In this document: piece after piece, positions 5,188 to 26,347 of the stretch | Position numbering within the stretch: position 1 is the first letter of the stretch | Layout of the letters: every line of letters begins with the position of its first letter | From: a phage | Sequence record: PZ452611.1 | DNA: 64,000 bases | Direction: 5' to 3' (one strand) | Program-made: the position numbers and the translations under genes | Notes under the pieces: model-generated | What the model was told of the DNA's origin: nothing | The model's input: only the letters and a program-made list of their open reading frames with translations | Databases searched by the model: none

Positions 5188-5541
5188 GATGAGTACCAAC
5201 TTCAAGTGCCTGACACACCGAAGTATAAGACTGTGTACACCTTCGACACAATTGAAGAACTGGAAGCATTTAAGGCAGAGCAGGAAGCCAAACTTCATGT
5301 GTTCGACGGTCATAAGTACAAAAAGGCACGCAAGGATGAGGACGGAAACGAAGTGGTTGACAGAGACGGAAACACGGTGTACGATCCTATCCTGAACGAT
5401 AACGGAAAGCTTGAACTTATCTGGAGCCCTGTGGGTGAAATGGTGGTGCATTGCTTCTGGCAAGCTTCTAAAATGATGGGAGTCCCGTTCCAGATCACAG
5501 GTGAATACTTGTGTGGTAGTAACTGGGGTGATTGTCACTAA
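5188..5541 (+). CDS. DNA polymerase, family A, exon 2: rest of motif C (DEYQLQV) and C-terminus
   Basis: Same frame as exon 1; no ATG/RBS of its own (frame opens after stop at 5161-5163); ends GSNWGDCH, matching Pol I-type C-terminus (E. coli GENWDQAH). Confidence 0.75.
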   Translation, partial: DEYQLQVPDTPKYKTVYTFDTIEELEAFKAEQEAKLHVFDGHKYKKARKDEDGNEVVDRDGNTVYDPILNDNGKLELIWSPVGEMVVHCFWQASKMMGVPFQITGEYLCGSNWGDCH

Positions 5542-5875: not shown

Positions 5876-6099
5876 CGACTTTGGTTAAAGCTACCTTTGT
5901 AGAAGAAAAGATGACAGACATGTCATTCTTTAAAGAAGGAAAGACCTACGAGGTTTATTACGATAAAGCTCGTGCAAACAAAATGATTAAAGACGAGGAA
6001 GGGGTTGACTGGTATATCTCTCACCTGGCAAACGGTGAGTATCATATCTACGGAACCACTTTGCTTGCCAAGTTTGTAGTTGTTGAAGAGGACCTATGA
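5872..6099 (+). CDS. hypothetical protein
   Basis: RBS AAGGAGA; ATGA start/stop overlap with upstream gene. Confidence 0.45.
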   Translation: MTTLVKATFVEEKMTDMSFFKEGKTYEVYYDKARANKMIKDEEGVDWYISHLANGEYHIYGTTLLAKFVVVEEDL

Positions 6100-6300: not shown

Positions 6301-6672
6301 ATGTTAGTAAAAGGTACCCACACAGTCAAACAACGTATTGAAGTTGAGATTGATGATTGTGAGCTGAAGCATATTTTACGGTCATGCTCCAACGTTTTGC
6401 TCCTTAGTATTCTTCAGGAGCGAGCGGAGAATGAGTTCTTAAATGCATTGGCAGGCCGTCCCGGTGACTTCTGTGTGCGTAAGCGTGGTGACAACAAGTC
6501 ATGGTTGTGGGAAATCGATGCCGACTGGGATTACCACAAAAATGAGGGTATAGATGAGCCTATTCGTGAACTGACTGAAAACGAAGTTCAGATGTACGAA
6601 GATGTTTGCCAGTGGGCAAAAAGTCAACAAACCTACCTTGATCCTTGGTGGATGATTGAAAATAGTCGTTGA
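6301..6672 (+). CDS. hypothetical protein
   Basis: ATG 6301 after GAGGAGG; track ORF 6274-6672 trimmed. Confidence 0.45.
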   Translation: MLVKGTHTVKQRIEVEIDDCELKHILRSCSNVLLLSILQERAENEFLNALAGRPGDFCVRKRGDNKSWLWEIDADWDYHKNEGIDEPIRELTENEVQMYEDVCQWAKSQQTYLDPWWMIENSR

Positions 6673-14303: not shown

Positions 14304-14610
14304 TACTTGAAAATTCCTGGCATATCAAGTATAAGGGGGATTTCTAAAATGGATTTCCTCCTTTTGATATTTCACCGGGCTGGATATTTTAAAATTCTTA
14401 GAAAATCAGAAAATGGATCGAAAACTAAAATGGATTTTTTCAGCACAGGCGCGGAAAATTGTGCCAATCTATCTAGCCGTTTGCACCATATTCGAGATCA
14501 CCGTTCCAGATTTCCCACACATACACACCTCTCCACCATACCTTTCTCCACTCACTCTTAGTGATTTATGACGGAAAACCCATCGCTATCAGTGAGTTGC
14601 GGTACAATTT

Positions 14611-14795
14611 TTCCAGTACTCGATCTACTTTTCATCTCATGGCTTGGATTTTCTGAAAATTTTTCTCGATAAATTTCTCAGTACTCGATCTGTTTTTCGT
14701 TTTCTGAATCGGATTTTCTGGAAATCGTTCCGGAGCTCGACCTGAAATTTTTGGGGACGAAATCGATTTTTCGTTTTCAGAAATGGATTTTTAAA
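14611..14795. repeat. three imperfect tandem ~60-bp repeats in AT-rich non-coding region
   Basis: cagtactcgatct at 14614 and 14679; ggattttctg recurring; third diverged unit to 14795. Confidence 0.5.
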
Positions 14796-15078
14796 ATTTC
14801 TATATGGGAATATTTTATGGGATACTGTTTTATAGGAAATTGTTACGGAGGGTAATTAGCATGCTAACTAAATTTATGAAATGCGAAAAGTTCTCATTTA
14901 GAATTTTGAATGATAATCATTCTCGTTTGCAGAATAACGGGCACCCCCGGTGATTGTCTCCCGGCCCCTACTGCCCCGGCTTGTTATTATAGTAACACAC
15001 AGGACAAAGAAAGCAAGAAGTTTTTGCATAAATTTTTAGACGATAATGATAATCGTTCTCATTTTATGCAGCGCCCAT

Positions 15079-15114
15079 CCCCGGTGGTTGTCTCCCCCGT
15101 CACCGGTGCCTGCC
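15079..15114. repeat. GC-rich ~36-bp element, copy in forward orientation (partial copy 14944-14962)
   Basis: ccccggtggttgtctcccccgtcaccggtgcctgcc; about 33 of 37 positions match reverse complement of 23739-23786. Confidence 0.55.
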
Positions 15115-15318
15115 GTCCTTTCGATAGGTATATTGTGCCACCTGGCGGGGCCGCTGTCAACACTTTTCAAAAAATTTTTCTAACCTGATGCGCTAACCGC
15201 TGCAACCTGGCGGGGCCAGCCTGGCAGGACCTAACTGACCAGGTAGGAGAGAATGAAGGCTTATAATCTGGTGGGCCTGTGCTATAGGATAGGTAACAAT
15301 TGAAGAGGAGGTACAAAA

Positions 15319-15501
15319 ATGAAAGGTAATATGATCCCCCTGGAAAATGTAGCGATTAATGACGCTGAGGCTATCGCCCTGGTTGAAAAGGCTATGGCGG
15401 GAGCGTTGGAACATAAAGAAGAGTACGAAAAATGGTGGTTAACCTGGCGGGGGCGGCGGCTGGAGAATTCTGCCCAAAAAATAATTTTAACTAATGGTTG
15501 A
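15319..15501 (+). CDS. hypothetical protein
   Basis: perfect RBS GAGGAGG; 60 aa. Confidence 0.45.
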   Translation: MKGNMIPLENVAINDAEAIALVEKAMAGALEHKEEYEKWWLTWRGRRLENSAQKIILTNG

Positions 15502-15580
15502 CAGCTCGGACAGTTCTTGTTATTCTTATCCTCGCAAGGTGAACAACACCACACTAATTAACAGAGAGGATAAAAAAATC

Positions 15581-15778
15581 ATGAACGCCTACGGAATCAA
15601 AGTACGTCGCAGCACTCGCCAGGTGGTCACCGATCAAATGGTTTGCCAGGTGGACGTAACCATCAACAACGGGCAAGGCCTTTATAAATTTCGTCGCGGT
15701 CATAGCTATACCCTGCAACAGCTTAATCGTTGCGCCCTGACAAAAGGTCAGATCAACCACTGGTTTAATAAAAAATAA
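15581..15778 (+). CDS. hypothetical protein
   Basis: ATG after AGAGGATAAAAAAATC; promoter-like TTGACA at 15498. Confidence 0.45.
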   Translation: MNAYGIKVRRSTRQVVTDQMVCQVDVTINNGQGLYKFRRGHSYTLQQLNRCALTKGQINHWFNKK

Positions 15779-15782
15779 GTAT

Positions 15783-15811
15783 TGACATATAGTCCGACAC
15801 CAAATACACTA
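15783..15811 (+). promoter_or_regulatory. sigma70-like promoter
   Basis: TTGACA-17-TACACT. Confidence 0.45.
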
Positions 15812-15842
15812 AAAGCACAAAAGACACTAAGAGGATAAAATC

Positions 15843-16241
15843 ATGAAAACCACTACCTTTAATTTTGATAATGCAGACTTTTCTTTTTCTGATGTCAAGA
15901 ACTGCCGCCGTGATCGTGGATTTTACAAGGCTTATAATCTGGTGGGCCTGGACGATGACAATAATTTGCACGAAGTAGCTGAGATCCGGTATTATGCCGC
16001 CGCCAGTGGGAACACTTACTACTGCGTTTTTTGGATACACGACAACAAGAACAATAAGTACGGCTATACTGGCGGCAAGGCAAGCGGTCACGGTTATGAT
16101 AAAGCTAACGCAGCACTTGAGAGCGCATTAAATGCCATGGGGATCACTGCCGACGGCTGGATCTACGAAGAAGAGTTTTTGTCGGCACTTGCTGACCACC
16201 TAGGCTATAAAAAGCACATTGTAACATGCGCCCACGAATAA
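15843..16241 (+). CDS. hypothetical protein
   Basis: promoter 15783-15811; RBS AAGAGGA; contains 24-nt segment duplicated at 15256-15279. Confidence 0.5.
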   Translation: MKTTTFNFDNADFSFSDVKNCRRDRGFYKAYNLVGLDDDNNLHEVAEIRYYAAASGNTYYCVFWIHDNKNNKYGYTGGKASGHGYDKANAALESALNAMGITADGWIYEEEFLSALADHLGYKKHIVTCAHE

Positions 16242-16323
16242 AAATCATTGACACGCTGCAAAATTTAAGTAAACTAGACACAAAAGGCGGGAATGTTTCC
16301 CGCCAGCACAAAGGAAAAAGATC

Positions 16324-16728
16324 ATGAATAAGAACGTACGCCGCATCATGAACGAGTTGGCAAACGATGAAAAAATTATTGACATGCATTTGATCAACAT
16401 TTGCCGCCGTTGTGTAACATATAACAACCGCGCCGCAAAAGCGCGTGAGATGAACGCAAAAGGCACCTTAAAGCCATTCCAGGTGGTGGTAAAGGCCATT
16501 AAAGATGTAACTAATACGGCAAACCAGGTACAGGGGAACACCAACGAGAGTACCAATATTGATCCGGCTTACATCATGAAACGGATCCGGACCTGCAAGA
16601 ACAAAGAGCAAGTGTATAATGTCATAGACTGGTTGGATTCTATGGGCGATGTGGTTTACAATAGGTTTTCTGCAGCTATCGAGATCCAGCTTGACAGGTT
16701 GGACGGTAAAGTACTAAAAACTTACTAA
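16324..16728 (+). CDS. hypothetical protein
   Basis: TTGACA 16248; 5'-UTR hairpin 16286-16304; RBS AAAGGAAAAAG. Confidence 0.5.
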   Translation: MNKNVRRIMNELANDEKIIDMHLINICRRCVTYNNRAAKAREMNAKGTLKPFQVVVKAIKDVTNTANQVQGNTNESTNIDPAYIMKRIRTCKNKEQVYNVIDWLDSMGDVVYNRFSAAIEIQLDRLDGKVLKTY

Positions 16729-16776
16729 GTTTATTTTTAGATGGCCTTGACTCCAGGGCCATCGATAAAGTAAACT
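16729..16776. repeat. ~48-bp intergenic palindromic element, copy 1
   Basis: tttatttttagatggccttgactccagggccatcgataaagtaaac directly after stop codon. Confidence 0.6.
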
Positions 16777-16808
16777 AATCCCAGTTAAGCGAAAAAGGAG
16801 GCTTGAAG

Positions 16809-16927
16809 ATGAGCACTACACGCCAACACACAAAGGTAACGATTATCGTTTGCATCATTGGTTACATCCTGGCGCAAATGTTGATGGGTAGCGCCAATGA
16901 TTTCGCAAAATTTTTCTTAGACTTTTA
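16809..16927 (+). CDS. small hydrophobic (single-TM) peptide
   Basis: 39-aa ORF after AAAAGGAGG; hydrophobic core VTIIVCIIGYILAQMLMG; below track cutoff. Confidence 0.35.
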
Positions 16928-16928
16928 A

Positions 16929-16956
16929 TTGACAAGCTAACTTAAATCAGTATAAT
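16929..16956 (+). promoter_or_regulatory. sigma70 consensus promoter
   Basis: TTGACA-16-TATAAT. Confidence 0.6.
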
Positions 16957-17008
16957 ACTAAGCACATAAACGGGAAAACTTCCCAGAACACCAAAAGGAG
17001 AAAACATT

Positions 17009-17359
17009 ATGAATACTTCCATCACTATGACCGCCGAAGAAAAAGCCCTGCAGATCGCCGCTCTGAAAAAACAGATTGCAGAACTTGAAGACAAGATCGA
17101 CAATTTTGAAATCGACGAAGACAAATACGACGATAAATATGATGAATGGTTGGACGAGATCTACGGCGAAATTATGATCGGAAACATTTCTTTTCTTCCG
17201 TCGCGTATCCTCAAGGAGCTAGATCCTATCGCTTACCGCTGCGGATTTAGCGACTACATCGACAGCCTGGATATTGAGGACGATGAAGAATACCAGGAAT
17301 TACAGACAGAGCTTGAAGAAGTGAAAGAAGAGCTTGCAGAACTGGAAGAAAACGAGTAA
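17009..17359 (+). CDS. acidic coiled-coil protein
   Basis: consensus promoter 16929-16956; RBS AAAAGGAGAAAACATT; very acidic D/E-rich sequence. Confidence 0.5.
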   Translation: MNTSITMTAEEKALQIAALKKQIAELEDKIDNFEIDEDKYDDKYDEWLDEIYGEIMIGNISFLPSRILKELDPIAYRCGFSDYIDSLDIEDDEEYQELQTELEEVKEELAELEENE

Positions 17360-17408
17360 ATTTATTTTTAGATGGCCTTGACTTCAGGGCCATCAATAAA
17401 GTAAACTT
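17359..17408. repeat. intergenic palindromic element, copy 2
   Basis: aatttatttttagatggccttgacttcagggccatcaataaagtaaac after stop codon. Confidence 0.6.
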
Positions 17409-17448
17409 TAGACTGTTAACACTTAACCAATACAGAGGAGTTAAAACC

Positions 17449-17694
17449 ATGGCCGCACTAATTACCAAATATTATGCCCCTACCAACACCAAAAGCGCCC
17501 GTATCATGGTAAAAGGCTTCGGACGTAAAAAGGTGTACACCTGGGATTATTCCCTAGACATGGAAGACAACTACACCAACGCGATGACAGATTTTATTAA
17601 TGAGCTGAACACGCGGATCTTGACAAATTATAAAATTACCGATATTGCCTATATAGGGGAAGGCGGGATCTGTTTTGTCGGTATCGTCAAATAA
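17449..17694 (+). CDS. hypothetical protein
   Basis: RBS AGAGGAG; 81 aa. Confidence 0.45.
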   Translation: MAALITKYYAPTNTKSARIMVKGFGRKKVYTWDYSLDMEDNYTNAMTDFINELNTRILTNYKITDIAYIGEGGICFVGIVK

Positions 17695-17770
17695 ACTGTT
17701 TTTTCGGTGGTCCTGGTAGCAGGGCCATCTATAAAGATAGTTTATCAGCACAATGAAAGGAGAAAGTAAC

Positions 17771-18124
17771 ATGATCAGCGGGGCAAGTTTTATTATTGGC
17801 GCTATTGCTACGGCTTTAATTGTAAACAAGATCCAATCCAAAAACGAAAAAGAGAGCAACGCGCTTACAGAATACCCATTTTGGGTATTCAACGACAATG
17901 AAGACTACATTATCAAGTACAAGGATGAGAAAGGGGACCAGGTAACACCGAGACCGATCCCAGCTTACAAGATGCAAGAAACATTATACCGCTTAAAGGC
18001 TGGCGGCGCAAAAATCGTAGACTTTTGGGGATATGATTGCAAGGATCAGGAGACTATAAAACGTCGTATCCGGGCGATTCAGGCAAATATTGAGATCAGT
18101 AAAGGGGGCGTTTATGAAAATTAA
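17771..18124 (+). CDS. membrane-anchored hypothetical protein
   Basis: ATG 17771 after AAAGGAGAAAG; N-terminal TM helix. Confidence 0.45.
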   Translation: MISGASFIIGAIATALIVNKIQSKNEKESNALTEYPFWVFNDNEDYIIKYKDEKGDQVTPRPIPAYKMQETLYRLKAGGAKIVDFWGYDCKDQETIKRRIRAIQANIEISKGGVYEN

Positions 18125-18311
18125 TTTCGAAAAAATTGTAAAGCGCCCCCACGATTCCGAAGAGCTGCCGGAACGCCGCCAGCGTAACAATAAACTGAAT
18201 AAACCGAAAAGGTTCGGGAAGATCTGGAGAAATCACTATGATCGCAAATTACCGGGCCTGCTTTTGGAACGTGAACGACAGGCGGAACGATACCGCCACA
18301 AAGACAAATAG
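18114..18311 (+). CDS. small basic protein
   Basis: ATG after AAAGGGGG; Arg/Lys-rich; followed by terminator. Confidence 0.35.
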   Translation: MKINFEKIVKRPHDSEELPERRQRNNKLNKPKRFGKIWRNHYDRKLPGLLLERERQAERYRHKDK

Positions 18312-18319
18312 CAACCAAC

Positions 18320-18348
18320 GCCCCGCCATTGTGCGGGGCTTTTTATTT
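18320..18348 (+). terminator. rho-independent terminator
   Basis: GCCCCGC-cattgt-GCGGGGC followed by TTTTTATTT. Confidence 0.6.
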
Positions 18349-18492
18349 CTATCCCGCCGATAGCGCCCCTGGTTGGCCCTACAAGCGCCATAAAGGCCCC
18401 TACCTATGCAATCCCCTTTCTTAACCTGAAAACAGCGTCTAGGGCCGTTTTATGGCGTTAAAAATATTATTGACAGTAATTCTATTTAAAGC

Positions 18493-18521
18493 TTGACACC
18501 TTGGGATAGTCCGGATATACT
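18493..18521 (+). promoter_or_regulatory. sigma70-like promoter (second TTGACA at 18470)
   Basis: TTGACA-17-TATACT. Confidence 0.5.
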
Positions 18522-18556
18522 AACCACATCAAAGCAAGAAGGAAGGAGTAAACGCC

Positions 18557-18817
18557 ATGCGTAAATTAAAAAATTTTGATAAAGTAGATGTTGTCCTGAA
18601 TAATTTTTACTACTGCAATAATAAAGCCGTTTGGTGGCGTGATAGTTCCACCGATAAAGTTAAAGCGCGCTTTCTCCAAGGGCACTGGCAAGGCCGCCCA
18701 GTGATTAAAATCTCGGGGCAATTGGTAGCGTTTAAAAATTGCCGCCGTGTTGATGACGTTGAAGAGATTCTAAACATTTTACGCCACAATAATTTAAAAA
18801 ATAGTGTTGACAAGTAA
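18557..18817 (+). CDS. hypothetical protein
   Basis: promoter 18493-18521; RBS AAGGAAGGAG. Confidence 0.5.
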   Translation: MRKLKNFDKVDVVLNNFYYCNNKAVWWRDSSTDKVKARFLQGHWQGRPVIKISGQLVAFKNCRRVDDVEEILNILRHNNLKNSVDK

Positions 18818-18834
18818 GTCTCAATAAGTATACT
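18807..18834 (+). promoter_or_regulatory. sigma70-like promoter
   Basis: TTGACA-16-TATACT. Confidence 0.5.
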
Positions 18835-18891
18835 TAAACACACAGGCGGGAAAACTTCCCGCCACTAACAAAGAAAATAGGAGAAAATATC

Positions 18892-19515
18892 ATGACCACC
18901 GTTAACATTACCACAGGTTACAATTTAGCTTTCGACGTGCTGACCGACGAACAAAAAGAAAAAGCCGTTGAAATGGTCCGAGAAAGAGAAGAACACAGCG
19001 GGGATAACTTTTTTGCAGAAAGTGTAATTGAAGACTATAAAGAATATGTCTTTCCAGAGTATGGCCTTGAAGATACCAAGGTACATTGGTCCGGCTTTTG
19101 GTGCCAGGGTGACGGCGCGTCAATCAGTGCGGAAAACGTGGATTTAGAAAAATTCTTGCGTAAAGTAAAGGCCCTGACCAAGTTCCGATCAATTCGTCAC
19201 TTGTTCGGCACAATGCACGATGGCGAGCTATCCGCAAGTGTTGAGCGTGATCCATATAGCCGCTATAGTCACGAAAACACTGTAAGCGGGTACATCGATA
19301 CTACATGGCTAGACCTGACCGCCAAACAAGAAAATAAAGTGGAAGATCTGGAAGAGCTGATCACCGAGACGGTACGGGAGCTATCCCGCAAGGTTTACGT
19401 AGACCTGGAGGAGGCCTATCTAGAACAGTTCACTACCGAAAACCTGATCGGCCTTATTGAGGCCAATGATTGGCGGTTTGATGTGGATGAATATGGAGAG
19501 ATGAGTTTTTCATAA
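18892..19515 (+). CDS. hypothetical protein
   Basis: promoter 18807-18834; 5'-UTR hairpin; RBS; 207 aa acidic. Confidence 0.5.
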   Translation: MTTVNITTGYNLAFDVLTDEQKEKAVEMVREREEHSGDNFFAESVIEDYKEYVFPEYGLEDTKVHWSGFWCQGDGASISAENVDLEKFLRKVKALTKFRSIRHLFGTMHDGELSASVERDPYSRYSHENTVSGYIDTTWLDLTAKQENKVEDLEELITETVRELSRKVYVDLEEAYLEQFTTENLIGLIEANDWRFDVDEYGEMSFS

Positions 19516-19523
19516 ATAAAGTG

Positions 19524-19552
19524 TTGCAATAATCTAAAAACCTGCTATATTA
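19524..19552 (+). promoter_or_regulatory. sigma70-like promoter
   Basis: TTGCAA-16-TATATT. Confidence 0.45.
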
Positions 19553-19604
19553 AAACTCAAGGGGCAAGACGTTTGCCCCCACACAAAACAAAGAGGAAAA
19601 CATC

Positions 19605-19985
19605 ATGAAAAACACTACCAAAGCTATTTACACCGTTATGTTTAACCTGGTTACCTTTCGCGAGGATATGAAAGATCTTCCGCGTGAAACAGTGTGCGAC
19701 CATATCGAAAACTATCGCAAACTAATCAAAGAGTTGCCTTTAAAACGTGATCAGTATGCGGCTAACGCCATGCTTAATGCCATGATCAAAAAGATGATCC
19801 AGTGTGATTTAATTCTAGCCTATGATTATGCGGGTGGTCGTTTTGCAGTATACAATCAGCCCGTGCCCGGTATGGGCACCATCGAAGAATTGCACGCGCT
19901 CAATCTAAAACAAGATGTGTGGGATAGTATGCCCCGCGTGGTGGTGTGGGCAGAAAGCGGGAAGATTTACGGCGATAGTTTTTAA
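19605..19985 (+). CDS. hypothetical protein
   Basis: promoter 19524-19552; hairpin; RBS AAAGAGGAAAACATC. Confidence 0.5.
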   Translation: MKNTTKAIYTVMFNLVTFREDMKDLPRETVCDHIENYRKLIKELPLKRDQYAANAMLNAMIKKMIQCDLILAYDYAGGRFAVYNQPVPGMGTIEELHALNLKQDVWDSMPRVVVWAESGKIYGDSF

Positions 19986-20049
19986 TCAGGTAACAGGCGG
20001 CATATTTGCCGCCTTATTGTTAAACAAAACTGCAAAAGAGGTACATAGA

Positions 20050-20421
20050 ATGGAATTTATTATTTTGGCTGTATTGGTTGCCTTGTTTAACGCCTGGATC
20101 GCTGGCAAGATGGGCAGATCCGCCTTTTTATGGTTTATTATATCTATTTTCCTGGGGGTGGTTGCAACTATTGTATTGGTTATCCTTGCAATTGTTGACA
20201 AGGGGAATAATAGAAAGGGTAAAGTATTTTCAGACCTGTACGACGCTCAAACGTTTGTCAACGCCTATTATAGTGATCTTCCAGTCTCCCTACGCTGCAG
20301 CTTGGCACAACAGGTTTTTGATGAGGCTAAAACCAGAGATCAAGCCCATGAGATATGTTTAACTGAGGCGGATCGCCTATTTGAGAGGAATAGAAAATAT
20401 GTGGGCCAACCGTTTAAATAA
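20050..20421 (+). CDS. hypothetical membrane protein (2 predicted TM helices)
   Basis: ATG after AAAAGAGG; hydrophobic segments. Confidence 0.45.
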   Translation: MEFIILAVLVALFNAWIAGKMGRSAFLWFIISIFLGVVATIVLVILAIVDKGNNRKGKVFSDLYDAQTFVNAYYSDLPVSLRCSLAQQVFDEAKTRDQAHEICLTEADRLFERNRKYVGQPFK

Positions 20422-20531
20422 TGCCACGTTAATTAATCCCTTTAGTGAAGATTTGAAGCCAGCCGCCTGGCGTGACGGATTCAATAACGAACGCTTTATT
20501 TTCAGGCCTGATCTTGAGGAATTTTATAACA

Positions 20532-20657
20532 ATGGATCGAACAACAGCGGAGATAATTTTTCTTGTGGTGTGTGTCGTGATAGGACTCCTGGGGGCCATT
20601 GTAGATCGCGTCACTACTACCAGAAGGAAAGGGGGAGACGATGACAACCAAGGATAA
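20532..20657 (+). CDS. small single-TM peptide
   Basis: 41-aa ORF; competing overlapping frame from 20399 exists. Confidence 0.25.
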   Translation: MDRTTAEIIFLVVCVVIGLLGAIVDRVTTTRRKGGDDDNQG

Positions 20658-20760
20658 GCCATGCACCGATAAGGTGCGCCGCGTTATGGTATGGCTTGAG
20701 ATTATCGCCCTTGAAATATTGCTAGGCGTAGGGATGTACTTTATCGCTGTAAGTAACTAA
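20641..20760 (+). CDS. small single-TM peptide
   Basis: 39-aa ORF after AAAGGGGGAGACG; followed by terminator. Confidence 0.3.
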   Translation: MTTKDKPCTDKVRRVMVWLEIIALEILLGVGMYFIAVSN

Positions 20761-20764
20761 GAAC

Positions 20765-20792
20765 GGCCCCCGATCATGGGGGCCTATCTTTT
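20765..20792. terminator. rho-independent terminator (possibly bidirectional)
   Basis: GGCCCCC-gatcat-GGGGGCC then TATCTTTT; A-run follows. Confidence 0.55.
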
Positions 20793-20816
20793 AAAAAAAA
20801 ATTTTCTTCCGGGGTG

Positions 20817-20845
20817 TTGCAATCCGGTCCGGAATGTGGATAATA
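20817..20845 (+). promoter_or_regulatory. sigma70-like promoter
   Basis: TTGCAA-17-ATAATA. Confidence 0.4.
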
Positions 20846-20900
20846 ACAATCAACGGGGAGCTAATCCCCACCACCACAAAAACCAGAAAGGAGAAACAAA

Positions 20901-21101
20901 ATGAGCAACAATATCCGCGTTATTAACTTCAAAAAAGAAGAAAAAATTGCCGTGCTGATTGACGGTCAAGAAATCTTCAAGGGCGACTATGAAGATCATC
21001 AAACGGCGATTAGTATCACTCGCGTGATTGGTTACCATAATTTCTACCCCCAAGGCGCTGAGGCAGCAGTTAAACGAATCAAAGAGATTGTAGGCCTGTA
21101 A
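20901..21101 (+). CDS. hypothetical protein
   Basis: promoter-like 20817-20845; hairpin; RBS AAAGGAG. Confidence 0.5.
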   Translation: MSNNIRVINFKKEEKIAVLIDGQEIFKGDYEDHQTAISITRVIGYHNFYPQGAEAAVKRIKEIVGL

Positions 21102-21150
21102 AATTTATTTTTAGATGGCCTTGACTTCAGGGCCATCAATAAAGTAAATT
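21100..21150. repeat. intergenic palindromic element, copy 3
   Basis: identical core to copy 2; after stop codon. Confidence 0.6.
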
Positions 21151-21192
21151 TAAACCCTGTTAAAATAATCAGTGCAAAAAGGAGTAATGATC

Positions 21193-21492
21193 ATGTTTAT
21201 ACCCGCCAATAATCTTTATTTCTTTGATGGTCAGATCGTAGACGGTGTGGAAGTGGAGATCACTGGGTGCCCTGGTGGTCAGGCTATGACTTTTCGGAAT
21301 AATGCCTTTGATGATTCTCGTATCGTTATGAGAATGGAAGTTACAAAGCTGGACGACAAGAAAACGCTCATTGACTATTCCGTGAAAGATCATCCAGACT
21401 ACCACATGATCTATGGTGATTTGTGTATTGTTGACCGTGACAAGGTGGGCGGCATTGTGATCGCTATTGTGAACGATGTTTTCTCTGAATAA
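21193..21492 (+). CDS. hypothetical protein
   Basis: ATG 8 nt after AAAAGGAG. Confidence 0.45.
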   Translation: MFIPANNLYFFDGQIVDGVEVEITGCPGGQAMTFRNNAFDDSRIVMRMEVTKLDDKKTLIDYSVKDHPDYHMIYGDLCIVDRDKVGGIVIAIVNDVFSE

Positions 21493-21631
21493 TTCCGGCA
21501 AATGATGCAAAATAAGGCCCCTAGCAGGGCCTGCAGCGATATAATCACATAAAGGCTATGCGGTTGCATGGCCTTTATTATTTTAGCGTTACAGCGTCCC
21601 CAAGGCGCTTAAAAAATTTTTAAAGAAGTAC

Positions 21632-21660
21632 TTGCATCAAGTCCTACAATATGGATAATA
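21632..21660 (+). promoter_or_regulatory. sigma70-like promoter
   Basis: TTGCAT-17-ATAATA. Confidence 0.4.
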
Positions 21661-21716
21661 GGACGTGTCAGGGGGGCGGCCCCCAATCATTAACCGGATA
21701 GATAGGAGTTAAAATC

Positions 21717-22001
21717 ATGGCTATTGTCACCGTTGGCGATGTAGTGGAAATGGAAGCAAAATACTTAAAAGCGGGTATGCATATCCTACGGAATGATCAA
21801 GAATTGTTATTAACGATGGTAGACTATAATCCCGGCCAGGATTATCCAAGCATCGACATACTTTTTGAGTATGTTGATGAAGAATTGAAAGAGGATGAGG
21901 CTTATCAGGGTGAATTCTGCAATTTCTTTTGCCCTGATGAGGTTGTAAAAGTTATCTATCAACCTGGCGTACCTTTCCCGCTGCACGCTATCAATAAATA
22001 A
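21717..22001 (+). CDS. hypothetical protein
   Basis: promoter 21632-21660; hairpin GGGGGCGGCCCCC; RBS ATAGGAG. Confidence 0.5.
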   Translation: MAIVTVGDVVEMEAKYLKAGMHILRNDQELLLTMVDYNPGQDYPSIDILFEYVDEELKEDEAYQGEFCNFFCPDEVVKVIYQPGVPFPLHAINK

Positions 22002-22314: not shown

Positions 22315-22365
22315 TAAATCAAAGGGGGGCAACAAGCCCCACCAACCACAAAGAGGATAAAAATC

Positions 22366-22545
22366 ATGGCTATTATTGCAAAGACTGAGATCGTAGGCTT
22401 AGATTCTATTCTCCTCGCATATGAGGAAGCTATAGAAATGTATGTGGTTTCCTATGGTGAATATATCCGTGAATATAAATCTATTGATCTGGCTTTTGAA
22501 TGTTATATTCGCCAGGTTAATAAAGCGTACGATGATTATCGTTAA
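22366..22545 (+). CDS. hypothetical protein
   Basis: promoter 22286-22314; hairpin; RBS AAAGAGGA; 59 aa. Confidence 0.4.
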   Translation: MAIIAKTEIVGLDSILLAYEEAIEMYVVSYGEYIREYKSIDLAFECYIRQVNKAYDDYR

Positions 22546-22635
22546 AATAGCTTGACAACAAACAACCATCTAACAAAGCATAATACATAAGGCGGTGGAA
22601 TGGTCCGCCACCTGGAACAAGAAGAGGAAAACAAG

Positions 22636-22740
22636 ATGAAACAGAAATTAATTGATGCGGTGATCCTGGTTATTGCCCTGGGTATTGGCCTGATTGCAAC
22701 CATGTCTAATATGATCTTGTCTTCCAACGGTATCGGGTGA
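22636..22740 (+). CDS. small single-TM peptide
   Basis: 34-aa ORF after hairpin and AAGAAGAGGAAAACAAG. Confidence 0.3.
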   Translation: MKQKLIDAVILVIALGIGLIATMSNMILSSNGIG

Positions 22741-22749
22741 GGTTGGCAA

Positions 22750-22965
22750 ATGATCACTAACAAAACAGGCAAAACAGAATTTTTACGCAACTTACAGATC
22801 GGCAAGCCTGAGATCTGGTATTGCACTAAAACACCACGTGACGAAATGAAAGACTTCACCGCCACGCTGCAACGGGTAAAGATATCCATCACGCAGAAAA
22901 AGGCCTTATTAGTGGTGGAAGGTGAGATCCCCCAAACCGTTGTTATAGTTGAGCGTACAGCATAG
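22750..22965 (+). CDS. hypothetical protein
   Basis: ATG after GAGG; 71 aa. Confidence 0.4.
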   Translation: MITNKTGKTEFLRNLQIGKPEIWYCTKTPRDEMKDFTATLQRVKISITQKKALLVVEGEIPQTVVIVERTA

Positions 22966-25395: not shown

Positions 25396-26347
25396 TCTGT
25401 ATTTCTCCTACCACAAACGGCCCAGCCTGGCAAGTGGAATAATTGACTAGCCAGCAATTACCAACACTGTACAAATATACATATAAAATAACTATTGCAT
25501 AATCTTTCATCTTGTGGTAGCAGGGCCATTTTTACACGTTTTCCTTCCAAAATTGCACGTAATGCAGCTATTGCATAAAATTTAACCTGATGCACATCTT
25601 CAATAGCTTGTCAACAACTAAAAATCTTTATAAGTCATACACTTACATAACCACAAAAGCGTGTTCTACGTGAAAAATCGAGTATAACTATAGCCGCCAG
25701 ATCTCAGAATTTACGTACGCTCACCATTCTATAGTCTGCTAAGTATTTATTCCAACCATAGAATAACAGAATAGTCAATACCTGCATAAAATAATTATTC
25801 GTGTAAACTGCATAACATAAATCAGCCGGGGTGTCAACATTTTTCGTAAACGGCTCGAAATTATCACTGTGAGCTATCATAAACAGAGAAATCTTTAGTC
25901 GTCTAATGTTTACTGTACGTTACTATACTAACTGGAATCATTAGATGACTAATAAAAAGATAAGAAATCATTAACAATGCAATTGTTTTATTCATAACAA
26001 TAAGGCAACTATGCAAACGAATGGCATGGCGCGACGGAGTCGCGACATAATATAAAAGCAGTAACCATCACCCCCGTGATAGTTTGTCTGCAAACTATTA
26101 ATCAGATCATAGTTGCCTTGTATTTAGTTAATCATGACATAAACTCAGGCATAGCCTTCGTCTCGAGGATGTTAACAAGCAAGGCAACTATAGATCTTCT
26201 AATAGTTGCCCTGCTTTTATATTATGTCATAGAAACACCCGAAGGGGTGACCAAAGGTCACCTGGCATAGCCAGTGAAATATTGTAAACAAGTTAATTAT
26301 TATCATGCAAACGAATGGCATGGCTTATCATCTCTGTGTAAATAGTT

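Follow-up and report, generated by a model that had tools for sequence, protein, structure and literature searches.

A conserved two-tier hairpin between early genes of rV5-type phages: a proposed RNase III site with a candidate promoter and a joint for gene cassettes

A repeated ~50-bp intergenic module was analysed in a phage DNA of 64,000 nucleotides (sequence record PZ452611.1; below, the window is this whole stretch), in which three near-identical copies lie between positions 16,729 and 21,150, together with a fourth, diverged one. The + strand RNA of every copy forms the same two-tier hairpin, and this fold, beyond mere sequence, is maintained across the paralogues and across Vequintavirus genomes: the module is a real, conserved structure of the sense-strand RNA. 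Our main explanation, to which we assign a probability of about one half, is an intergenic hairpin processed by RNase III, with a superimposed candidate promoter, which serves as a recombination joint in the early region of rV5-type phages. Positions 16000-22000 of the window match Escherichia phage rV5 (DQ832317/NC_011041, genus Vequintavirus) over their full length at 99.9% identity, in reverse-complement orientation; the window differs from DQ832317 by five single-base indels within 8 kb, the elements themselves being indel-free. The elements are set in the leftward early region, among small open reading frames (ORFs) of unknown function (ORF194 to ORF177), with numerous consensus sigma70 promoters and several canonical U-tract terminators; the rV5 annotation does not include the module.

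The three near-identical elements placed after stop codons by the original prediction are real. The 24-nt core GATGGCCTTGACTTCAGGGCCATC occurs exactly at 17371-17394 and 21114-21137 and with a single mismatch (T>C in the loop) at 16740-16763; all three occurrences are on the + strand, and no match arose in 100 shuffles. A 45-mer is likewise exact at 17361-17405 and 21104-21148, with 2 mismatches at 16730-16774. Copies 1, 2 and 3 begin at or inside the TAA stop codons of the upstream ORFs (16726-28, 17357-59 and 21099-101, respectively), and all copies sit between ORFs of the same strand.

Each hairpin is an interrupted helix of ~22 bp. Its lower stem consists of 10-13 A/U base pairs and holds the upstream stop codon inside the 5' arm; a 2-nt/3-nt internal loop separates it from a G/C-rich upper stem of 10 bp (GAUGGCCUUG/CAGGGCCAUC, including one U.G pair), capped by a tetraloop. 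This structure replaces the 7-bp stem with a 10-nt loop that had first been described. Copy 1 (16728-16776, after ORF194) has its lower stem at 16728-37/16767-76, internal loop at 16738-39/16764-66, upper stem at 16740-49/16754-63 and the tetraloop ACTC at 16750-53. The corresponding parts of copy 2 (17357-17410, after ORF192) are 17357-68/17398-410, 17369-70/17395-97, 17371-80/17385-94 and ACTT at 17381-84, and those of copy 3 (21101-21151, after ORF179) are 21101-11/21141-51, 21112-13/21138-40, 21114-23/21128-37 and again ACTT. Copy 4 (17691-17745, + strand, after ORF191) has a lower-stem sequence unlike that of copies 1-3 and an identical architecture: lower stem 17691-703/17733-45, internal loop 17704-05/17730-32, upper stem GGTGGTCCTG/CAGGGCCATC at 17706-15/17720-29 and tetraloop GTAG.

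Folding energies on the + strand ranged from -20.9 to -28.2 kcal/mol and z scores from -4.6 to -7.9: -26.1 kcal/mol with z -7.0 for copy 1, -20.9 with -4.6 for copy 2, -23.6 with -6.6 for copy 3 and -28.2 with -7.9 for copy 4. The - strand reached only -12 to -16 kcal/mol (-16.4 for copy 1), a fold ~8-16 kcal/mol poorer. When the whole 64-kb window was scanned on both strands with a sliding 60-nt fold, three of the four copies ranked among the 22 most stable, and no two-tier hairpin of the A/U plus G/C type was found beyond the four copies.

The structural alignment comprised 28 distinct variants from 12 genomes (rV5 itself, two IMG/VR contigs and nine other relatives from GenBank); three more GenBank relatives were screened by pattern and fold only. 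RNAalifold recovered the same structure, with 20 pairs, from the 28 variants. Standard pairs filled 98.8% of the pair cells, as against 93.9% after shuffling, and the covariation score was 0.203 versus 0.117; in neither case did any of 500 shuffles reach the observed value. Sliding the partners by 1-3 columns lowered the proportion of standard pairs to 35-58%. Double changes were seen at four pairs of the lower stem (G-C/A-U/G-U, U-A/C-G, U-A/G-U/A-U and A-U/U-A), and one covarying pair takes in position 5 of the putative -10 hexamer (TAAACT versus TAAATT) and its G/A partner 48 nt upstream.

All upper-stem changes within the 28 aligned variants keep the pairing of the + strand. Of the upper-stem substitutions seen, all with the same effect, A>G, C>T and T>C belong to copy 4, C>T to copy 3 of Alma and phiWec189, and G>A to copy 3 of Mangalyan; three of the five would produce A.C mismatches if the - strand were paired. 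The upper 5' arm of copy 4, GGUGGUCCUG, has three transitions that retain pairing (as G.U or C-G) on the + strand only. The 3' arm, CAGGGCCATC-N-ATAAAG, is more conserved in this alignment than the 5' arm. Both exceptions to upper-stem pairing lie outside the alignment and are decayed copies: copy 1 of Gotham (1721-1779 of the Gotham stretch) has a 5-nt deletion and a 3' arm without GGGCC, which destroys the upper stem and leaves a promoter spacer of 13 bp, and copy 4 of Alma (6335-6400 of the Alma stretch) has a 1-nt insertion and a G>T change, its hairpin being bulged yet stable.

A covariance model applied to the complete rV5 genome recognised four members and no more, each of them lying between 16.7 and 21.2 kb in the window, with scores of 73-83 bits on the + strand (83, 82, 81 and 73 bits for copies 1 to 4) and 30-43 bits on the - strand. 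Of the two diverged relatives initially proposed, the one at 17691-17745 is thus a member that folds and scores 73 bits, whereas the one at ~25500-25530 is not: a 15-mer, TGGTAGCAGGGCCAT, at 25512-25526 (+ strand) is identical to the loop and 3' arm of copy 4, but it has no 5' arm, fold or covariance-model match, and relatives keep the same half form. This 15-mer lies just beyond the terminator at 25368-87 that closes the early cluster, with an estimated ~0.005 matches expected by chance, and could be the relic of a fifth copy or a coincidence. The model found no member in T7 or phi92. No Rfam family corresponds to the element; at a permissive E-value the best overlapping matches scored 17.6-23.5 bits, against gathering scores of 50-70.

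A search of related genomes for copy number and position had been proposed as a check. BLAST with a 61-nt copy found 349 places in 121 phage records, usually three per genome, at orthologous positions and with variable copies; the copies occupy these positions in ~120 genomes, always in a single orientation. Among the matches listed, all records but one are annotated as Vequintavirus or are unclassified and ~91-97% identical to it. A host origin of the element was ruled out, as none of the 5,426 E. coli genomes searched holds a copy. IMG/VR scans with the 3'-arm pattern and with the ORF191 protein recognised only two Vequintavirus contigs, the remaining pattern matches being single, and a metagenome scan on the A/U lower stem (TTATTTTTA-N22-28-ATAAAGTAAA) returned random AT-rich matches, without a covariance-model member in the 80 loci listed. 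The element is not described in the literature on rV5 promoters and terminators or on Vequintavirus transcriptomes.

Because the geometry of the hairpin matches that of the RNase III signals in T7 early mRNA, cleavage by host RNase III is proposed. Like the T7 signals R0.3, R0.5, R1, R1.1, R1.3, R4.7 and R18.5, the element is an intercistronic hairpin in an early polycistronic mRNA, with an upper stem of ~10 bp, a loop of 3-4 nt and a lower stem of ~10 bp, amounting to about two helical turns in coaxial stems. The 3'-side internal loop has 3 nt in both, UAU in T7 and NAU in the rV5 element. Several of the T7 sites also have a promoter beside them or within them, examples being phi1.1A and the E. 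coli promoters C (3113) and E (36836). There is no sequence homology between the two, and cleavage in the rV5 element is a prediction. When R0.3, R1.1, R4.7 and R18.5 were folded, an upper stem of 9-10 bp, a 3-4-nt loop and a lower stem of ~10 bp were obtained, and the 3-nt internal loop on the 3' side (UAU) held the cleavage position. The T7 coordinates used here are presumably those of Dunn and Studier 1983, rather than of an annotation table; they are supported because each landed, on folding, in the 3'-side internal loop.

The reactivity epitopes of RNase III are a distal box, UA/UG, and a proximal box, G-C, A-U/U-A, A-U, A-U/U-A, with G-C at proximal positions 2 and 4 acting as antideterminant (Pertzev and Nicholson, PMC1540722). 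By inspection, copies 1-3 carry under the loop-closing pair the canonical distal box U-A/U-G, as does T7 R1.1; in their proximal box, position 2 is A-U and position 4 an A.A mismatch, so that no antideterminant is present. The match in geometry points, by analogy, to host RNase III processing and 3'-end stabilisation of the polycistronic early mRNA. The enzyme would cut this RNA between NAU and AAAG, in the 3' strand of the internal loop and 13 nt 3' of the apical loop, with predicted cuts after 16766 (copy 1), 17397 (copy 2), 17732 (copy 4) and 21140 (copy 3). The upstream message would keep a protective 3' hairpin and the downstream message would be freed. Copies 2 and 4 lie downstream of promoter P192 and ahead of the first U-tract terminator (18320-39), and are placed inside one transcription unit for this reason; on the transcript structure that we infer across them, cleavage would split the P192 unit into ORF192, ORF191 and ORF190-189 messages, with the upstream pieces ending in a hairpin.

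The DNA of copies 1-3 also contains a plausible candidate sigma70 promoter. In copy 1 (16747-16776, + strand) a -35 hexamer TTGACT at 16747-52 is followed by an 18-bp spacer and a -10 hexamer TAAACT at 16771-76; a T-rich UP-like tract lies at 16730-38 and the next start codon at 16809. Copy 2 (17378-17407, + strand) has TTGACT-N18-TAAACT ahead of ORF191, which starts at 17449, and copy 3 (21121-21150, + strand) has TTGACT-N18-TAAATT ahead of a gene starting at 21193. According to a consensus scan, the common form TTGACW-N18-TAAAYT matches the consensus at 9 of 12 positions and stands after the T-rich TTTATTTTT; a T-rich tract ahead of a -35 hexamer resembles a distal UP subsite. A Shine-Dalgarno sequence and a start codon follow 30-45 nt on. 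PhagePromoter independently called the Gotham sites orthologous to copies 2 and 3; the sites of copies 1-3 are absent from the list drawn up by the rV5 authors under stringent criteria. We suggest that this DNA may act as a moderate sigma70 promoter, in which a T-rich UP-like tract precedes TTGACW (in the apical loop) and, 18 bp further on, TAAAYT (in the lower stem), and that transcription of each downstream cassette could then also start independently.

Among relatives the -35 hexamer reads TTGACT, TTGACA, TTGACG or TTGATA. The last two loop positions are free to vary, which fits both a -35 hexamer and a loop. Copy 4 and one IMG copy-1 variant (with a 5-nt loop and an altered tail) keep the hairpin and have lost the promoter geometry; for this reason the module looks like two superimposed signals, of which the RNA hairpin is the more constrained. 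The converse arrangement was met in phi92 (Justusliebigvirus), where the intergenic sequence before gene 235 contains AATAAAGTAAACT and a T-rich tract, spaced as in the element, with TTGCAA 16 bp upstream. Like the element, it is placed between a stop codon and the 5'-untranslated-region hairpin and Shine-Dalgarno sequence of the next gene; unlike the element, it does not fold significantly (-4.5 kcal/mol, z about 0), and it looks like the promoter half without the RNA half. This counterpart offers evidence that the -10 block AATAAAGTAAACT is likely a real regulatory piece.

The elements are also points of exchange between genomes. A facultative cassette of ~631 bp includes the segment between copies 1 and 2 (16777-17360, + strand), with ORF193, promoter P192 (16929-56) and ORF192. 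In magaca, ECP32, phiWec189 and the IMG/VR contig 2051223002_000007, the homologue of ORF191 comes next after that of ORF194, the 631 bp being absent, and between them lies a single chimeric element flanked on the left as copy 1 is and on the right as copy 2 is; in magaca, window positions 14398-16776 and 17361-21500 both align to one common 47-nt element. The chimeric element is as expected of homologous exchange between the direct repeats 1 and 2, by which the 631 bp were lost or gained. Within a genome, copies 1 and 2 often share loop variants that differ between genomes: both read ACTT in APCEc02, ACTC in A147, and ACAC in slur16, HdK5 and Alma. Such sharing suggests gene conversion.

The unit of P192, ORF192 and copy 2 (16928-17405, + strand) is also present, at 89.8% identity, in KKE7M, a phi92-like Justusliebigvirus (Stephanstirmvirinae), where the rV5-type cassette replaces the gene-234 cassette of phi92. 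Other Justusliebigvirus matches covered only ~77% of the query, consistent with the absence of the insert. The left crossover lies in a promoter common to both lineages, TTGACAAGnTAACTnAAAT, and the right one falls inside the element, in ATAAAGTAAAYT at its end, which is likewise shared. A promoter-ORF192-element cassette has thus crossed into a phi92-like phage, with one crossover within the element. Short patches of 74-93% identity between rV5 and KKE7M were also observed at window positions 22354-22547, 22685-22963 and 19638-19971, and suggest that further early-gene cassettes have been exchanged between the subfamilies. A separate cassette indel is found at ~21500-21505, where most relatives have an extra ~350 bp (a 351-nt gene, e.g. 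magaca_202) absent from rV5; it adjoins terminator-like hairpins at 21515-21532 and 21549-21578 and is not bounded by the studied element.

Promoter-early stem-loops (PeSLs), known from the T4-type phages RB49/phi1, T4/PST and KVP40/nt-1, are repeated modules that fill the interval from stop to start codon and combine a sigma70 promoter, an AT-rich tract and a stem-loop that includes G.T pairs; ORFans are inserted, deleted or replaced through them (Arbiol et al. 2010, PMC2839356; Comeau et al. 2014, PMC4122927). PeSL stem-loops also terminate or attenuate transcription, and mini-circles arise when PeSL motifs recombine. The rV5 module resembles them as a repeated intergenic motif of ~50-100 bp amid hyperplastic small early ORFans, here with four copies between ORFs of unknown function, and in its AT-rich tract, putative sigma70-like -35 and -10 hexamers and G.T-containing stem-loop. 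In both systems the motif is where close relatives differ by indels and replacements (here the 631-bp cassette and the KKE7M boundary), and early-region gene content varies among rV5 relatives. The differences are substantial. The rV5 module occurs in Vequintavirinae (genus Vequintavirus) rather than in T4-type phages, is unrelated in sequence, and has only four copies, confined to 4.4 kb. A PeSL carries a polyG/polyC hairpin beside or between the hexamers, whereas in rV5 a two-tier hairpin of ~22 bp, without a U-tract, encloses the whole candidate promoter, whose -35 lies in the loop and whose -10 in the lower stem. The candidate rV5 promoter is sub-consensus and missing from one copy. Because the host genome of the module belongs to Vequintavirinae, we treat the module as a likely functional analogue of the PeSLs; we regard it as an analogue of the T7 RNase III signals as well, and claim membership in neither class.

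Several observations weigh against the combined explanation of RNase III site, promoter and joint. The compared sequences are closely related (~84-95% DNA identity) and include paralogues, so that the shuffle statistics overstate their independence; despite this kinship, the evidence for the structure is consistent in direction. Individual copies are dispensable, since copy 1 of Gotham and copy 4 of Alma have decayed. Proximal-box positions 1 (U-A) and 3 (G-C) differ from the optimal G-C and A-U of T7 R1.1, and the distal box of copy 4 is U-A/C-G, without the U-G pair. The promoter match is just 9/12 with a long, 18-bp spacer, and such matches are common in this AT-rich region (45 found versus 31 expected); copy 4 has no credible promoter and one IMG copy-1 variant is out of register. 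No transcript-end or cleavage data for Vequintavirus were found in the literature.

A GC-rich hairpin right after a stop codon is reminiscent of an intrinsic terminator. The original prediction had noted that no T-run follows the stem on either strand and had on this ground set aside a canonical rho-independent terminator, and both statements were borne out: the T-run of the rV5 element is upstream of the stem and an A-run downstream, with AATAAAGTAAA following on the + strand and TAAAAATAAA on the - strand, and the copies were absent from a terminator scan that found canonical U-tract terminators at the ends of neighbouring genes (18320-39, 19995-20014 and 20765-84). A broader alternative, possible although we consider it rather unlikely, is a PeSL-type promoter plus attenuator acting without RNase III, in which the hairpin slows or terminates read-through or blocks 3'-to-5' exonucleases and the promoter restarts transcription of the next cassette. 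PeSL stem-loops reduce the expression of a downstream lacZ about as much as the rrnB T1 terminator does (PMC2839356), and the rV5 element, which like a PeSL spans the interval from stop codon to next Shine-Dalgarno sequence, has both a GC-rich 10-bp stem and a promoter-like site. The missing U-tract speaks against it all the same, as does copy 4, which has no promoter for a restart. In addition, selection also extends to the A/U second stem and to an internal loop of fixed size (2x3) placed 10 bp below the tetraloop; an RNase III substrate requires both, and neither a terminator nor an exonuclease block needs them. A site for a phage-encoded RNA-binding protein, regulating translation or stability of early genes in place of host RNase III, would account for a structure conserved on the mRNA strand and for a 3' arm and NAU-AAAG tail conserved beyond the needs of pairing. 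We regard it as improbable: the hairpin ends 25-40 nt before the next Shine-Dalgarno sequence and hence does not occlude it, and a scan of the flanking proteins for nuclease, regulator and RNA-binding domains gave no more than PHROGs of unknown function and, below threshold, Pfam coiled-coil noise. A likeness of the minus strand (GCCCTGAAG...) to lambda boxB was rejected, as the genes are on the other strand and the loop varies among relatives (ACTT, ACTC, ACAC, ACGC, ATAAC).

The module could instead be read at the level of DNA. An imperfect 48-bp palindrome centred on a -35-like hexamer, with one arm better conserved than the other and with copies that are recombination points, might be an operator overlapping the -35 or a recognition, nicking or cruciform site of a phage endonuclease. 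The substitutions in the arms (A>G and C>T, giving G.U) nevertheless maintain pairing on the + strand and produce A.C mismatches on the other, where the fold is also much worse; copy 4 alters 3/10 bases of one half-site and the whole lower stem with its fold intact, and plain homology accounts for the crossovers. The suggestion of a binding site for a regulator or for a nicking or homing enzyme is accordingly disfavoured, and we hold such a site to be quite improbable. Least probable of all, and only barely credible, is an autonomous element resembling a miniature inverted-repeat transposable element that inserts after stop codons. It would explain a multi-copy palindromic unit with one copy in a different phage subfamily, but the copies keep orthologous positions and one orientation across ~120 genomes, show no visible target-site duplications, and have no counterparts elsewhere in the rV5 genome, in the E. 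coli genomes or, by BLAST, in unrelated phages; the transfer between subfamilies took a neighbouring gene along, through homologous crossover points. The small mobile repeat of the original prediction therefore does not stand as a transposon, and survives as a homologous-recombination joint for gene cassettes. Among the three candidate roles that had been listed there, RNA processing is the best supported, by the sense-only fold, the wobble and compensatory changes and the T7-like geometry, and RNase III cleavage is, on the analogy with T7, the best-supported mechanism that we infer.

Some further features of this region were recorded. The indels between the window and DQ832317 lie at 15383, 15455, 20793, 21243 and 21280, and the last two fuse ORF178 and ORF177 of the GenBank record into a single 99-aa ORF (21193-21492). 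Because this merged ORF matches phrog_7366 and a 300-nt gene of relatives, the split in GenBank is probably a sequencing or frameshift artefact. ORF191 (17449-17694), flanked by copies 2 and 4, encodes an 81-aa protein of phrog_3199 with homologues of 35-46% identity in unrelated phages (CAjan/Greed-type siphoviruses, Pseudomonas KIL-type myoviruses and ~40 kb Klebsiella phage records), and is a widely travelled early ORFan. A second repeat family consists of GC-rich hairpins, (G)GCGGGAA-N3-4-TTCCCGC(C), at window positions 16286-16304, 16971-16985 and 18845-18863 and at 5306-5328 and 6066-6087 of the KKE7M stretch. They stand a few bases 3' of strong sigma70 early promoters, in the 5' untranslated region before the Shine-Dalgarno sequence; KKE7M and phi92 have analogous post-promoter hairpins, and these may be 5'-end stabilisers. 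Seventeen GenBank records labelled 'Campylobacter phage' (MG0656xx, including MG065644, UNVERIFIED) are ~93% identical to rV5-type coliphages in this region, and their host label looks doubtful.

We advance only tentatively the idea that one ~50-bp sequence could be at once a hairpin for host RNase III, a sigma70 promoter whose UP tract, -35 and -10 form the arms and loop of that hairpin, and a joint for cassette exchange, including exchange between Vequintavirinae and Stephanstirmvirinae. If this is true, PeSL-like modular shuffling would be a general strategy of large virulent phages, with the stem-loop serving as a processing site and not as a terminator. The module itself carries the notion of regulatory cassettes as recombination joints, known from PeSLs, beyond the T4-type phages. 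The KKE7M case is a concrete transfer of a cassette between two phage subfamilies, with both crossovers in shared regulatory sequence. In practical terms, the module marks sites naturally tolerant of engineered insertions and deletions, and its repeats could destabilise engineered genomes. Phages of the rV5 type are widely isolated and are in development against pathogenic E. coli, while their early region is annotated as nearly all hypothetical, with consensus promoters and terminators only; for these phages the module provides the first specific prediction of how polycistronic early RNAs are partitioned, with cleavage positions given to the nucleotide.

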